From a virus (lineage: Duplodnaviria > Heunggongvirae > Uroviricota > Caudoviricetes): a DNA stretch of 5,329 bases. The notes beneath the pieces were generated by a model. That model searched no databases. It was given only the letters and a program-made list of their open reading frames with translations, and was not told the DNA's origin. Shown piece by piece: positions 1,887 to 5,311 of the stretch (positions within the stretch are counted from its first letter, which is position 1; every line of letters starts with the position of its first letter). The translations under genes and the position numbers were made by a program. Location of the stretch: IMG/VR virus record IMGVR_UViG_2529292735_000011; one strand, written 5' to 3'.

Positions 1887-2432
1887 GCATGAGTACCACA
1901 ACACGAAAATTTAAAACCATTATCACTGATACTGGTGCCAAAAAATTAGCTCAGGCTGCCGCGCCAGATGGTAATCCTGTCCGCCTGACTCATATGGCCG
2001 TGGGCGACGGTGGCGGCACGTTGCCCACACCAGACAGTAAGCAGACCCGTCTGGTGCATGAGGTGTGGCGACATACTGTTAATCGCGTCATCCTGGACGC
2101 AACACATCAGAACCGCATTATTGCGGAGCTGGTTATTCCTCCTGAAACGGGCGGATTCTGGATCCGGGAAATTGGTGTATTTGATGAGCACGGCGATTTG
2201 ATCGCGGTGGGCAATACTGCCGAAAGTTACAAACCAACCGTTGCCGAAGGATCCGGACGTGCACAAACATTTCGCACCATTCTGACCGTATCCAGCACTG
2301 CCACCGTGGCGCTTACCGTGGATAACACCATGGTGATGGCCACAGTGGATTACGTGGATGACAAACTGAAAGAGCATGAACAGTCACGACGTCACCCGGA
2401 CGCCTCGCTGACCGCAAAAGGCTTTTGTTCAA

Positions 2433-2910
2433 CTCAGTAGCGCCACTAACAGCGTGTCTGAAACGCAGGCTGCAACGCCGAAAGCAGTAAAGGCCGCGTA
2501 TGATCTTGCTAACGGGAAATATACTGCGCAGGATGCCACCACAGCGCGAAAAGGCCTTGTCCAGCTCAGTAGCGCCACCAACAGCGATTCTGAAACGCTG
2601 GCGGCAACACCAATGGCGGTAAAGGCAGCATATGACCTTGCTAACGGGAAATATACTGCGCAGGATGCCACCACAGCGCGGAAAGGCCTTGTCCAGCTCA
2701 GTAGCGCCACCAACAGCACGTCTGAAGCACTGGCCGCAACACCGAAAGCGGTAAAGACAGCATATGACCTTGCTAACGGGAAATATACCGCTCAGGACGC
2801 TACGACAGCACAAAAAGGGATTGTCCAGCTAAGCAGCGCGACTAACAGCACATCTGAAACGCTTGCCGCGACACCGAAAGCAGTGAAAGCAGCTAATGAC
2901 AATGCGAATG
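2433..2910 (+). repeat. In-frame 132-bp tandem repeat inside H (about 3.5 copies, 44-aa unit [44 protein letters not shown])
   Basis: Unit starts at 2433, 2565, 2697 and 2829, all exactly 132 nt apart. The first three copies are near-identical at nucleotide level; the fourth diverges after about 60-80 nt. The repeat also generates the spurious antisense ORFs 2313..2813 and 2429..2719. Confidence 0.9.
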
Positions 2911-3668
2911 GTCGGGTACCTTCTGCCCGTAAGGTGAATGGTAAGGCGCTTTCAGCGGATATTACACTGACGCCGAAAGATATTGGTACGCTTAACTCAA
3001 CAACTATGTCATTCAGCGGTGGTGCTGGTTGGTTCAAATTAGCAACGGTAACCATGCCGCAGGCGAGTTCTGTTGTTTCAATTACGTTGATTGGTGGCGC
3101 GGGATTTAACGTGGAGTCACCTCAACAGGCAGGTATATCTGAACTTGTTCTTCGTGCGGGAAATGGAAATCCAAAAGGTCTTACTGGTGCGTTATGGCGA
3201 CGGACATCGGTTGGATTTACTAATTTTGCATGGGTGAATACATCCGGTGATACCTATGATGTTTATGTTGAAATAGGTAATTACGCCACAGGTGTTAATA
3301 TTCAATGGGATTATACCAGTAACGCCAGCGTAACGATTCATACTTCACCAGCATATTCTGCTAATAAGCCGGAAGGATTAACGGACGGTTCTGTTTATTC
3401 GCTGTATATTTCGCCTCATGAACTTTATCCGGTTGGCGCACCGATCCCTTGGCCATCAGATACCGTTCCGTCTGGTTATGCCCTGATGCAGGGGCAGACT
3501 TTTGACAAATCTGCATACCCGAAACTTGCAGTCGCTTATCCGTCAGGCGTGATCCCTGATATGCGTGGCTGGACTATCAAGGGCAAACCTGCCAGTGGTC
3601 GTGCCGTATTGTCTCAGGAACAGGACGGCATTAAATCGCACACCCACAGCGCCAGCGCATCCAGTACT

Positions 3669-3758
3669 GATTTGGGGACGAAAACCACATCGTCGTTTGA
3701 TTACGGTACTAAAACGACCAGTTCATTTGATTACGGCACAAAAACCACAAATAGCGCA
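3669..3758 (+). repeat. Three tandem 30-nt / 10-aa units in the H distal region ([10 protein letters not shown] / [10 protein letters not shown] / [10 protein letters not shown])
   Basis: Read directly from the translation and nucleotides. The copies differ at synonymous positions, so this is an older protein-level repeat rather than a recent duplication. Confidence 0.55.
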
Positions 3759-4036
3759 GGAGCTCATTCACACAATATACCTGTTGGTCACACTGGCGCG
3801 GGGAATGGTGTATCAGCCGGTTATAACGCTGCGTTAGGTACTGGTACCACGTCGAGCGCAGGAGGGCATGCTCACAATGTATATATCGGTGCCCATAACC
3901 ACACTATCGGCATTGGTGCTCATGCCCATTCTGTCATTATTGGTCCCCACGGACACACCATCACCGTTAATGCTACGGGGAACGCAGAAAACACCGTAAA
4001 AAACATCGCATTTAACTATATTGTGAGGCTTGCATA

Positions 4037-4615
4037 ATGACATTCAGAATGAGTGAACAATCACGGACCATAAAAATTTATAATCTACTGACCGGAACCA
4101 ATGAGTTTATTGGTGAAGGTGATGCACACATTCCACCTCATACAGGTCTGCCTGCAAACAGTACCGATATTGCCCCGCCAGATATTCCGGCTGGCTTCGT
4201 GGCCGTTTTCAACAGTGATGAGGCATCGTGGCATCTCGTTGAAGACCATCGGGGTAAAACGGTTTATGACGTGGCATCAGGGGACTCGTTATTTATTTCT
4301 GAACTCGGTCCATTACCGGAAAATGTTACCTGGTTGTCGCCGTATGGAGAGTATCAAAAGTGGAACGGCACATCCTGGGTGAAAGATGCAGAAGCAGAAA
4401 AACTGTTTCGGATAAGGGAGGCGGAAGAAACAAAAAACAGCCTGATGCAGGTAGCCAGCGAGCATATTGCGCCACTTCAGGATGCCGTAGATTTGGATAT
4501 TGCAACGGAGGAAGAGGCATCGTTACTGGCTGCATGGAAGACATACCGGGTATTGTTGAATCGTGTTAATACAGCGGTAGCAGCGGAAGTTGAGTGGCCA
4601 GTCGCCCCACAATAA
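4037..4615 (+). CDS. tfa: Tail fibre assembly chaperone (lambda Tfa-like, with a P2 gpG-like C-terminal end)
   Basis: 192-aa ORF whose ATG overlaps the H stop (TAATG), with GTGAGG upstream. The sequence [54 protein letters not shown]... is very close to my recollection of lambda Tfa. The C-terminal ...[26 protein letters not shown] resembles the conserved end of P2 gpG. It sits immediately downstream of the fibre gene, as cognate chaperones do. Confidence 0.85.
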
Positions 4616-4621
4616 AGAGAA

Positions 4622-4651
4622 AAAGCCATCGATTGAAATATAGATGGCTTT
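4622..4651. terminator. Bidirectional rho-independent terminator between the convergent tfa and acetyltransferase genes
   Basis: Perfect 9-bp inverted repeat AAAGCCATC (4622-4630) / GATGGCTTT (4643-4651) around a 12-nt loop, with a GC core GCCATC/GATGGC. On the minus strand the stem is followed by TTTTTCTCTTTATT; on the plus strand by TTTATGT. It lies in the 43-bp gap between the two stop codons (4615 and 4659). Confidence 0.6.
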
Positions 4652-4658
4652 ATGTACT

Positions 4659-5231
4659 CTATTTATACAATACAACACCGCTCTTTTTAGTTATATATGT
4701 GCAGTTCGATGGTATATCTTTATTTATAAAAGACATTGCACCTATTTTTACATTATCCCCAATTTTACGTGATAATCCAATGATGCAACAATTAGCTCCG
4801 ATATCAACGTTACTACCAATTTTTACTCTTGAACCAGGCATGTCACCATCTATCTGCCCAATGGTAGTATTCTGCCGTAACACCAGATTTTCACCAGCAT
4901 CAACAGCAAAATGAACAACAATTCCAGCATGATGGGGAATTGTTAACCCTTTTCCAATATTTGCGCCCAATCCAATTTCACAACCAAATTTGTTAATTAT
5001 TTTATTGTTTAACTTTTTGGCTGCTGTCTTATGTAATTTATTACCATTAATATACATTTCGTTAGCCAACCGCCACCAGAAAAGGAAATTCCGGTTACGC
5101 TGTTTTTTCTCTCTTAAAAGCCTCCAGATATCCATACGTTTCCGCCGAATTACTTCATATTTCCAGAAGTTTTTTAAATTAGTAGAGTTCCCAAATAAAA
5201 CAAAGTGAATTGCCATTAAGTAAGACAGCAC
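4659..5231 (-). CDS. Hexapeptide-repeat (left-handed beta-helix) O-acetyltransferase, WcaB / serine acetyltransferase (CysE) family-like; AT-rich cargo gene
   Basis: Minus-strand ORF with stop TAG at 4659-4661. The six-frame track extends it to 5264, but the best start is the GTG at 5231-5229, which lies 6 nt after a strong SD AAGGAG (5243-5238). An ATG at 5216 is an alternative. The core ...GCEIGLGANIGKGLTIPHHAGIVVHFAVDAGENLVLRQNTTIGQ...VKIGSNVDIGANCCIIG...IGDNVKIGAMSFINKDIP has the [LIV]-G-x-x-x-x hexapeptide periodicity and the I-x-H-H-x-G-I-V-V motif of the CysE/WcaB/NodL transferase family. It is visibly AT-rich with A/T-rich codons, unlike the upstream phage genes. Confidence 0.75.
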   Translation of the reverse strand: MLSYLMAIHFVLFGNSTNLKNFWKYEVIRRKRMDIWRLLREKKQRNRNFLFWWRLANEMYINGNKLHKTAAKKLNNKIINKFGCEIGLGANIGKGLTIPHHAGIVVHFAVDAGENLVLRQNTTIGQIDGDMPGSRVKIGSNVDIGANCCIIGLSRKIGDNVKIGAMSFINKDIPSNCTYITKKSGVVLYK

Positions 5232-5282: not shown

Positions 5283-5311
5283 ATTATAAAATCCTGTTGT
5301 TTGTTATTCAA
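5283..5311 (-). promoter_or_regulatory. Candidate sigma70 promoter for the acetyltransferase gene
   Basis: On the minus strand: TTGAAT (plus-strand 5311-5306), a 17-nt spacer, then consensus TATAAT (5288-5283), about 50 nt upstream of the GTG at 5231. AT-rich DNA produces such hexamers by chance, so this is sequence-only support. Confidence 0.45.

Follow-up and report, generated by a model that had tools for sequence, protein, structure and literature searches.

A P2-type tail fibre with a gp37/Stf-type distal part and its Tfa chaperone in a P88-type prophage of Escherichia coli

The tail-fibre protein gp37 of phage T4 has been described in terms of its domain limits, its seven iron sites and its receptor-binding tip (PMC6957217), and the lambda Stf/Tfa pair has been compared with gp37 and with the Tfa of Mu (PMC7291167). 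In lambda, stf (orf-401/orf-314) is followed by tfa (orf-194), and in T4 the chaperone gp38 is likewise encoded directly downstream of the fibre gene. The P2-like phages P2 (gpH/gpG) and P88 (Xuanwuvirus; H/G) have the same order of H followed by a chaperone gene. Two P1-like phages of the genus Punavirus, JL22 and vB_EcoM-Ro157c2YLVW (Ro157), carry a block of genes for Stf, Tfa and an acetyltransferase, joined to a fibre base of the P1 S type and beside the cin invertase system, and the Citrobacter phage phiNP has a fibre-tfa-sat arrangement with the same order and orientation. Finally, a synthetic chimera has been constructed in which residues 1-393 of lambda STF are joined to residues 251-669 of P2 H (Brodel et al. 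2024; PMC11338833).

We analyzed a stretch of 5,329 nucleotides (hereafter the window) that carries elements of several of these systems. The window corresponds to the late genes V-W-J-I-H-tfa of an E. coli prophage of the P88 type (P2-like, Peduoviridae). The baseplate genes around H are of P2 type (PF12571, GPW_gp25, Baseplate_J and Tail_P2_I in Pfam), the W-J-I baseplate genes being shared with P2 and P88. An enterobacterial host such as Escherichia or Shigella had been suggested in the first-pass annotation, and Escherichia is borne out by the genome matches and by the record of the source product. The GC content drops from 0.56 in the backbone to 0.45-0.50 in the segment discussed below, and to 0.35 in the acetyltransferase gene that follows it. 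Our preferred reading is that the ~2.5 kb from nt ~2900 to past the window end is a mobile host-range cassette that has replaced the original segment; we put the probability of this reading at roughly 0.9, a joint figure that covers the P88-type prophage, the chimeric H and the swapped cassette together. The features of H, all on the plus strand, are as follows.

1889..4037, +, tail-fibre gene H, 715 aa after removal of the extra T at 2423
1889..2398, +, N-terminal domain of P2 type for baseplate attachment, residues 1-170 (PF12571, E=4.4e-55)
2416..2900, +, tandem repeat of 132 nt in 3.7 copies (TRF), encoding four Phage_fiber_2 repeats (PF03406)
2423..2423, +, one additional T (TTT to TTTT), causing the frameshift in H, absent from 1116 complete genomes
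2900..2912, +, left mosaic junction, directly 3' of the last ATPKAVK (residues 334-341, AANDNANG)
2913..3419, +, shaft/knob module, residues 342-510, without counterpart in lambda, T4 or P2; GC 0.446
3420..3635, +, Collar domain corresponding to T4 gp37 D10, residues 511-582 (PF07484, E=1.8e-11; alignment with 2XGF; limits from PMC6957217)
3636..3773, +, ascending needle stem strands, with HxH at 3639 and 3765, plus a 30-nt repeat in 2.3 copies
3774..3851, +, tip subdomain, residues 629-654, aligning with T4 gp37 932-959
3852..4034, +, descending stem strands and conserved C-terminus, with HxH at 3867, 3894, 3921 and 3948

In the contig, H is split by the extra T into two ORFs (1889-2440 and 2454-4037), which had been overlooked in the first-pass annotation; the peptides quoted there were found on the plus strand, in the ORF 2454-4037 and in the next one, 4037-4615, which ends ...EWPVAPQ. 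An intact 715-aa orthologue, 97.5% identical, is present in E. coli A1. The extra T is missing from every one of the 1116 complete E. coli genomes containing this stretch, and the best matches differ by that base alone. A programmed frameshift at the T-run was therefore rejected, H being a single ORF in those genomes.

At the protein level, H shares 93.6% identity with P88 H in residues 1-298, and its residues 7-254 show 72% identity to residues 4-251 of P2 H. Beyond H residue 254 (nt 2887), neither protein nor DNA similarity to the distal receptor-binding region of P2 H (residues 252-669) was detected. The remainder resembles other fibres: residues 342-715 are 92.6% identical to JL22 Stf, residues 513-715 are 66% identical to the C-terminus of lambda Stf, and residues 501-715 are 63% identical to T4 gp37. 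The N-terminal tail-attachment part of lambda-type fibres has no match in H, in which only the 54-residue repeat motif (residues 342-394 of orf-401) is recognized. The shaft module is 86% identical to that of JL22 Stf and 35-56% identical to numerous fibres of the T-even gp37 and Felix-O1-like kinds, and it matches phrog_3299, phrog_21552 and phrog_6722. H is a chimera, with a P2-type anchor and four Phage_fiber_2 repeats in residues 1-341 (PF03406 matches 4 stretches in Pfam, E=1.8e-68) and a gp37/Stf-type distal fibre in residues 342-715, the latter consisting of the shaft module, then the collar, then an HxH needle that bears a small tip. Compared with P2 and P88, the distal two-thirds of their H (ending ...YINGTWYNVAQV), the gpG/U-type N-domain of their chaperone, and the invertible segment and invertase of P88 are all absent from the window.

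The same boundary is seen in the DNA. P88 matches nt 1-2756 at 96.6% identity, the match extending through the repeats to ~2898-2912, whereas the JL22 match covers 2981-5223 at 92.6% and comprises the shaft, the needle, tfa and the convergent acetyltransferase gene. JL22 similarity starts at residue 342 in the protein and at nt 2981 in the DNA. Lambda stf/tfa match at 3428-3774 (84.6%) and 3912-4599 (88.7%), T4 matches at 3425-3712 and 3893-4040 (69-73%), and a nucleotide comparison over the window gave no match to P2 past nt 2887. The start that the first-pass annotation had given to its module, 2900, coincides with the left junction at 2900-2912, and the proposed horizontal exchange of fibre tip and chaperone agrees with the passage from P88/P2-like to JL22/lambda-like DNA at ~2900. 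Its placing of the tip on a P2-type N-terminus and baseplate holds as well (PF12571; 96.6% nt identity to P88), and the distal part of H and Tfa are not collinear with P2 H and G over their whole length, P2 similarity stopping as described above.

Directly upstream of the junction, the 132-nt fibre repeat appears to be the shared recombination hinge. Its Phage_fiber_2 motif is common to P2 H, P88 H, lambda orf-401, P1-like Stf and mEp332 Stf, and the identical repeat-to-shaft junction also occurs in the lambdoid phage phi458 and in two phages of ~108 kb. The exchange most likely took place by homologous recombination in this repeat, which is shared by P2-, P1-, Mu- and lambda-type fibres. The engineered lambda STF-P2 H chimera has its fusion point at this very position, 8-9 residues past ATPKAVK, but joins the parts the other way round, with a P2 tip on a lambda base; this indicates that the hinge tolerates module swaps. 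P88 appears to hold its invertible fibre segment and invertase at the corresponding position; nevertheless, the idea that the junction is a former invertase crossover site was rejected because the alternative fibre end of P88 is only 248 aa long, which by arithmetic only puts that segment well past the junction in the downstream direction. On the other side, the exchanged segment passes 4615 and reaches at least 5223. The P88-type backbone of E. coli A1 picks up again at window-equivalent 5382; the right-hand junction lies beyond the window, and homology that would explain it was looked for without success.

The distal part of H had been assigned to the gp37/Stf kind on account of its His-rich HxH repeats, an assignment that is confirmed; all six motifs align with those of T4 and lambda. 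The motifs lie at residues 584, 626, 660, 669, 678 and 687 (nt 3639, 3765, 3867, 3894, 3921 and 3948), within the last 132 residues, compared to a mean of 0.6 and a maximum of 5 in 5000 shuffles of H; a motif count gave zero for each of P2 H, P88 H and Mu S. The T4 gp37 needle structure 2XGF (chain residues 18-242) is matched by the distal 214 residues of H (phmmer E=8e-79), and the last 14 residues are the same in H, lambda Stf and T4 gp37. The D10 collar, the D11 stem and the tip of T4 are aligned throughout, with HxH on both the ascending and the descending strands, whereas T4 has seven iron sites (7 HxH in the crystallized part) against six HxH in H. The analogy with T4 gp37 suggests a trimeric fibre in which each of the six HxH motifs would bind a single metal ion on the axis of the needle.

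With lambda Stf, H shares the collar, the HxH needle, the identical C-terminus and the stf-tfa gene order, and the nucleotide identity is 85-89% over 3428-3774 and 3912-4599. It differs in its P2-type N-terminus, which stands in place of the lambda tail-attachment part, and in its tip: lambda Stf has ~43 extra residues, 8 HxH motifs and a quite different tip subdomain. The term lambda-type tip used in the first-pass annotation is imprecise: the tip subdomain at 3774-3851 is exactly where lambda similarity breaks, residues 342-510 have no lambda counterpart, and P1-like and other lambdoid phages stand closer than lambda itself. DNA similarity to both lambda and T4 is interrupted at the tip (3775-3911). 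The tip subdomain is near-identical in A1, JL22 and Ro157, and diverges from both lambda and T4; it shares few residues with the mapped LPS/OmpC contacts of T4, which are mostly not conserved in H. We predict that residues ~629-654 form the distal, receptor-contacting pole, the receptor probably being an outer-membrane porin and/or the LPS core. A further difference from T4 is the context of H, a temperate phage with a P2-type fibre base.

Downstream of H lies the chaperone gene.

4037..4615, +, tfa, tail-fibre assembly chaperone, 192 aa (PF02413, E=5.8e-39)
4415..4612, +, conserved C-terminal Tfa domain, residues 127-192 (42% identity to P2 G and Mu U; 5YVQ chain B, E=3.6e-8)

The PF02413 score is 133.7 bits, compared to a cut-off of 22.1, and PF28596 (Caudo_TAP_N) is on record for the Tfa product. 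The start of tfa overlaps the stop of H (TAATG), and Tfa is likely to be translationally coupled to H and to have been transferred together with the tip. It is 87% identical to lambda Tfa over its full length (191 aa), 91% to mEp332 Tfa, 93% to JL22 Tfa and 28.6% to the homologous T4 gp38 (E=1e-16). The two parts of the protein behave differently: residues 1-126 are 93% identical to lambda Tfa and 13-14% to P2 G and Mu U, whereas residues 127-192, to which the resemblance to P2 G and Mu U is confined, are 76% identical to lambda and 42% to those two proteins, with 76-92% for lambdoid and P1-like Tfa in a sliding comparison. On these alignments, the 42% match to gpG corresponds to the C-terminal domain common to the whole Tfa family (PF02413; 5YVQ, Mu Tfa). 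The fibre-specific N-terminal domain may bind the needle, and the family-wide C-terminal domain may start trimerization from the C-terminus. An Rfam match to IS009 is present inside tfa; a real sRNA is unlikely, as the substitutions in that stretch fall preferentially at third codon positions.

The first-pass annotation had described Tfa as lambda-like with a P2 gpG-like end, of which the former stands and the latter is not supported. A lambda/P2 hybrid with a gpG-derived end could be argued from the last seven residues, EWPVAPQ, of which 5/7 are shared with P2 gpG (EWPEMPQ) against 4/7 with lambda, and from the fact that both Tfa and gpG terminate right after PQ. Yet a nucleotide comparison revealed no similarity to P2 G anywhere in tfa, whereas lambda similarity runs to 4599, 16 nt short of the stop, and other chaperones match the end better: the Tfa of the lambdoid phage mEp332 ends EWPVAPIG (6/7 of the last residues, 9/15 of the last 15), those of JL22 and Ro157 match 7/7, and that of Hafnia phage yong2 likewise ends ...EWPTPPQ. 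Together with the sliding identities, these observations led us to reject a P2 origin of the end, and we regard the hybrid as highly improbable. It is also very unlikely that the distal fibre was taken directly from a T-even phage instead of the temperate lambdoid/P1-like pool. The shaft module has homologues in many T-even gp37 and none in lambda Stf, and the tip is of T4-like length (26 vs 28 residues) where lambda has its insertion; however, nucleotide identity is 85-93% with lambdoid and P1-like phages against 69-73% with T4, the shaft module is 80-86% identical to temperate phages against 35-54% to T-even proteins, and the chaperone is of lambda Tfa type rather than gp38.

The window makes up one whole 5.3-kb contig in a draft assembly, its junction adjoins a tandem repeat found in many prophages, and the contig has three private indels, all of which might point to a mis-join across the 132-nt fibre repeats common to several prophages. 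The chance of such an artefact is negligible and it is ruled out by complete genomes: four of them align across 100% of the window, end to end, at 96.8-97.1% identity, 208 complete E. coli genomes hold at least 80% of it at one place, and the joined H gene is annotated intact in A1. The indels raise a different question, namely whether the module is a dead remnant in a decaying prophage that makes no fibre in the source strain. J, I and H, three adjoining essential tail genes, each carry an independent, private 1-bp frameshift (AAA to AA at 641; at 1788, where relatives read CACATGA; TTT to TTTT at 2423), none of which was found in 547-1116 other genomes; the one at 1788 is outside any homopolymer, and tfa and the acetyltransferase gene, potentially useful to a lysogen, are intact. 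On the other hand, two of the three are homopolymer-length changes typical of early-draft sequencing error, larger deletions and IS insertions are absent from the window, and substitution divergence from intact relatives is just ~3%. The frameshifts may mean a non-functional module in the source strain or errors in the draft sequence, and decay is in our view a serious possibility with less than even odds. In any case, the swap itself is real, and an ordinary case of phages trading host-recognition parts.

The cassette is larger than the first-pass annotation had stated. Its end at 4615 is the stop of tfa, but the block continues to at least 5223 with a further gene; the view that tip and chaperone form an exchangeable cassette is sustained by JL22, which carries the block at 92.6% nt identity. 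The additional features are listed below.

4622..4651, strand not assigned, 9-bp hairpin, AAAGCCATC-12 nt-GATGGCTTT, in the interval separating tfa from the convergent acetyltransferase gene
4659..5231, -, hexapeptide-repeat acetyltransferase gene of CysE/WcaB type, GC 0.35 (Hexapep weak in Pfam; PDB E=7e-14)
5283..5311, -, promoter-like site TTGAAT-17-TATAAT, 5' of the acetyltransferase gene (consensus scan only)

The acetyltransferase gene matches serine acetyltransferases in the PDB, whereas its scores miss the NCBIfam family cut-offs (EpsC, 74 vs 150 bits; CysE, 63 vs 211; WcaB, 55 vs 196), so that the sequence supports the hexapeptide-repeat fold class only. The hairpin has fold z-scores of -4.3 (plus strand) and -3.9 (minus strand), with a U-run after it on the minus strand, and the promoter-like stretch has 26% GC. 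Homology to NeaT was rejected, NeaT being a PF01757 membrane acyltransferase; the two share only a moron position between G and FI, opposite orientation and low GC. The tip type was found in 530 of 5426 complete E. coli genomes, and in 528 of the 530 the acetyltransferase gene is linked to tfa of this type. The gene also falls inside the block of JL22, which together with Ro157 is the nearest relative in the phage collection, although in the window this block sits on a P88/P2-type base and lacks an invertase. In phiNP, whose fibre also has 6 HxH, the tip, Tfa and acetyltransferase are 77%, 56% and 44% identical to those of the window, on a short fibre (282 aa) in another phage backbone and with Citrobacter as host.

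In summary, this locus is a clean natural case of tail-fibre module exchange, with junctions mapped within a few residues, of a tip type that is widespread among E. coli prophages. The mosaic leaves the understanding of fibre evolution unchanged. Its natural break point is also the fusion point of the engineered chimera, which makes it useful for retargeting phages or phage-derived particles. The only lead to something new is the tight linkage of the uncharacterized acetyltransferase to the tip and chaperone pair. As a speculative possibility, to which we give rather low odds, the exchangeable unit might consist of three genes (tip, chaperone and convergent low-GC acetyltransferase) that move together among P2-like, P1-like and other temperate phages, the acetyltransferase expressed from the prophage modifying the surface polysaccharide or LPS that the tip recognizes. 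If true, such a three-gene unit would couple host range with self-exclusion.

The first-pass annotation placed a lambda-type fibre module on a P2 baseplate, and this central interpretation is right. The window is AIHM01000016.1, a complete contig (5329 bases) of the draft NCBI assembly GCA_000250455.2, whose accession block we take to belong to a diarrhoeagenic E. coli draft-genome collection. It carries the following elements.

Features of the window (positions in nt).
start of window, + strand: V, 3' end only
113-463, + strand: W
467-1363, + strand: J
1356-1886, + strand: I
1889-4037, + strand: H, tail fibre
4037-4615, + strand: tfa, fibre assembly chaperone
4622-4651: 9-bp hairpin between tfa and the acetyltransferase gene (z about -4)
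4659-5231, - strand: acetyltransferase gene, low GC
5311-5283, - strand: candidate promoter-like site

In Pfam, the baseplate genes match GPW_gp25, Baseplate_J and Tail_P2_I; H matches Phage_tail_fib (E=4.4e-55), Phage_fiber_2 (four repeats) and Collar; and Tfa matches Caudo_TAP (E=5.8e-39). The top complete-genome relative, E. coli A1, is 97.1% identical across the entire window; its copy lies within a P2-family prophage adjoining ihfA-pheT, and its H is a single intact gene (715 aa). The mosaic arrangement is not an assembly artefact, since 100% of the window aligned in 4 complete genomes and at least 80% aligned at one place in 208. This tip/backbone combination is common among the E. coli sequenced so far; in the phage collection searched, none of the deposited records reaches 80% coverage of the window.

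At the DNA level, P88 (Xuanwuvirus, Peduoviridae) is 96.6% identical over nt 1-2756, its match reaching ~2898-2912 via the repeats of H, and P2 matches at ~71% from 1454 up to 2887, likewise via the repeats; no P2-like DNA was found beyond 2887. The P1-like phage JL22 is 92.6% identical over nt 2981-5223, lambda 84.6% at 3428-3774 and 88.7% at 3912-4599, and T4 69-73% at 3425-3712 and 3893-4040. The proteins follow the same division: H residues 1-298 are 93.6% identical to P88 H, 342-715 are 92.6% identical to JL22 Stf 631-1006, and 502-715 are 94% identical to the fibre of Ro157c2YLVW, another P1-like phage, with lambda Stf at 66% (513-715) and T4 gp37 at 63% (501-715). GC content is 0.56 in the P88/P2-type backbone, falls to 0.45-0.50 across distal H and tfa, and is lowest in the acetyltransferase gene, at 0.35. 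Rather than being collinear with P2 H and G, distal H and Tfa thus belong to a DNA and protein mosaic.

The left junction lies immediately past the fourth copy of the H repeat motif ...[21 protein letters not shown], which is encoded by a 132-nt tandem unit (3.7 copies, 2416-2900). The motif is common to P2 H, P88 H, lambda orf-401, P1-like Stf and mEp332 Stf, the fibres sharing it part ways 8-9 residues downstream in each case, and the repeat-to-shaft junction recurs in lambdoid phi458 and two ~108-kb phages (80-83% identity). Because of this common motif, constant register and recurring junction, homologous recombination inside the fibre repeat would be the likely route of exchange. The engineered fusion of lambda STF 1-393 to P2 H 251-669 by Brodel et al. 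has its joining point in the same register as the natural junction (PMC11338833). Two antisense ORFs over the repeats, of 166 and 96 aa at 2313-2813 (-) and 2429-2719 (-), are generated by the repeats and are without support as genes.

On the right side, JL22 similarity stops at 5223, and in A1 the P88-type backbone restarts at window-equivalent 5382, past the window end. P88 fills the corresponding interval with its distal H and G, an alternative pair of fibre and chaperone genes lying inverted, and a DNA invertase; the window lacks all of them. The prophage lineage swapped a switchable host range for one fixed tip plus an acetyltransferase. In the closest phage backbones, those of P88 (7765-11920) and phage 503458, the invertible segment (alternative fibre end and chaperone) and a DNA invertase lie within the replaced interval, which corresponds to window 2900-end.

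Tfa was described by the first-pass annotation as lambda-like with a P2 gpG-like end. The first part holds: over 191/192 residues Tfa shares 87% identity with its lambda counterpart, and it is 91% identical to that of lambdoid mEp332, 93-94% to those of P1-like phages and 28.6% to T4 gp38; lambda DNA similarity extends into tfa until 16 nt short of the stop. P2 G and Mu U resemble Tfa only within residues 127-192 (42%), with which the Mu Tfa structure 5YVQ also aligns. Tfa proteins combine an N-terminal domain specific to the fibre with a C-terminal domain that is conserved (PMC7291167). North et al. (2019) reportedly found the same division. Because the C-terminal domain is conserved and the likeness lies only in 127-192, the gpG resemblance reflects conservation across the whole family. 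A P2-derived end is not supported: sliding identity found no stretch of Tfa closer to gpG, the final seven residues agree with mEp332 at 6/7, gpG at 5/7 and lambda at 4/7, a Hafnia phage Tfa likewise terminates in ...PPQ, and DNA comparison found no P2 G similarity in tfa. Rfam reported RF02111 (IS009) at 4380-4578 (+), with 192 bits against a gathering score of 117, a match that lies wholly in coding DNA of tfa (codons ~115-181). Substitutions under this match favour the third codon position (19/32 vs lambda, 16/26 vs mEp332), so RF02111 probably represents a remnant of tfa coding sequence rather than a structured RNA.

The peptides quoted earlier were found as written in the ORFs, including the Tfa end ...EWPVAPQ, and the distal histidines of H are indeed of the gp37/lambda-fibre kind. 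Six HxH motifs (residues 584, 626, 660, 669, 678 and 687) all fall in the final 132 residues; shuffled H averaged 0.6 and did not reach 6 in 5000 trials. Lambda orf-314 has 8 and the T4 gp37 needle 7, with zero in P2 H, P88 H and Mu S. The final 14 residues are the same as in lambda Stf and T4 gp37, and the entire collar and needle match the T4 crystal structure 2XGF (E=8e-79). T4 domain limits (PMC6957217) were placed on H by alignment.

Modules of distal H.
residues 342-510 (nt 2913-3419): shaft module
residues 511-582: collar
residues 583-628: ascending stem strands
residues 629-654 (nt 3774-3851): tip subdomain
residues 655-715: descending stem strands and C-terminus

Many T-even gp37 proteins and fibres of Felix-O1-like phages contain homologues of the shaft module (35-56% identity); no counterpart was found in lambda, T4 or P2. 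In T4, the needle histidines hold seven iron atoms, compared with six HxH motifs in H, and the tip subdomain bears the LPS and OmpC contact residues (PMC6957217). The H tip is T4-like in length (26 residues vs 28), whereas lambda Stf has ~43 residues more; in sequence the H tip is unlike either, and a gap in lambda and T4 DNA similarity (3775-3911) coincides with it. Given this difference and this gap, the label lambda-type is apt for the scaffold of distal H and not for the predicted receptor-contacting surface, and the receptor is not deducible from lambda or T4. A1 and the window differ by 143 mismatches, of which 57 lie in the shaft module and collar start (3001-3600), together with a small cluster of indels (3409-3423), and only 2 lie in the needle (3601-4000); this uneven divergence suggests more recombination between modules within the distal fibre.

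The exchangeable block first delimited at 2900-4615 is real, but it extends through the acetyltransferase gene, as the JL22 match to 5223 indicates. The gene, convergent to tfa, is predicted to encode a hexapeptide-repeat acetyltransferase resembling CysE, WcaB and EpsC, under every curated cut-off. It falls within the block common to JL22 and Ro157c2YLVW and is present in 530 complete E. coli genomes, 528 of which have it joined to this tfa; 66 copies are plasmid-borne. Distant homologues occupy the same place in two other phages: Citrobacter phage phiNP has the same order of tip, tfa and acetyltransferase (77, 56 and 44% identity), and in Hafnia phage yong2 the homologue is convergent to a tfa serving a fibre that lacks HxH motifs. 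The enzyme could modify a surface polysaccharide tied to the fibre's receptor, or the gene could be an unrelated moron at a favoured site. It occupies 'moron position 2' of P2-like phages (G/FI interval), where CFT073 carries neaT, which encodes an unrelated membrane acyltransferase (PMC3573123). The hairpin and candidate promoter are compatible with independent expression and are not evidence of function.

Comparison with A1 revealed that three adjacent tail genes are each disrupted by their own 1-bp indel.

Indels relative to A1.
641: -A (AAA to AA), in J
1788: +C, in I
2423: +T (TTT to TTTT), in H

Each indel is private to this contig: of the complete E. coli genomes that carry the 81-nt stretch in question, 0/1004 (641), 0/547 (1788) and 0/1116 (2423) are identical to the window there, and the best matches differ solely by the indel. 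Sequencing error is more likely than genuine decay of the prophage, because two indels are homopolymer changes and the assembly is an early draft.

That P2, P1, Mu, lambda and T-even phages trade their fibre tips and chaperones horizontally has stood in textbooks since the early 1990s; Montag et al. (1989), Haggard-Ljungquist et al. (1992) and Hendrix and Duda (1992) are said to be sources on this horizontal exchange. The mosaic in the window is a further case of it, rather than a new principle.
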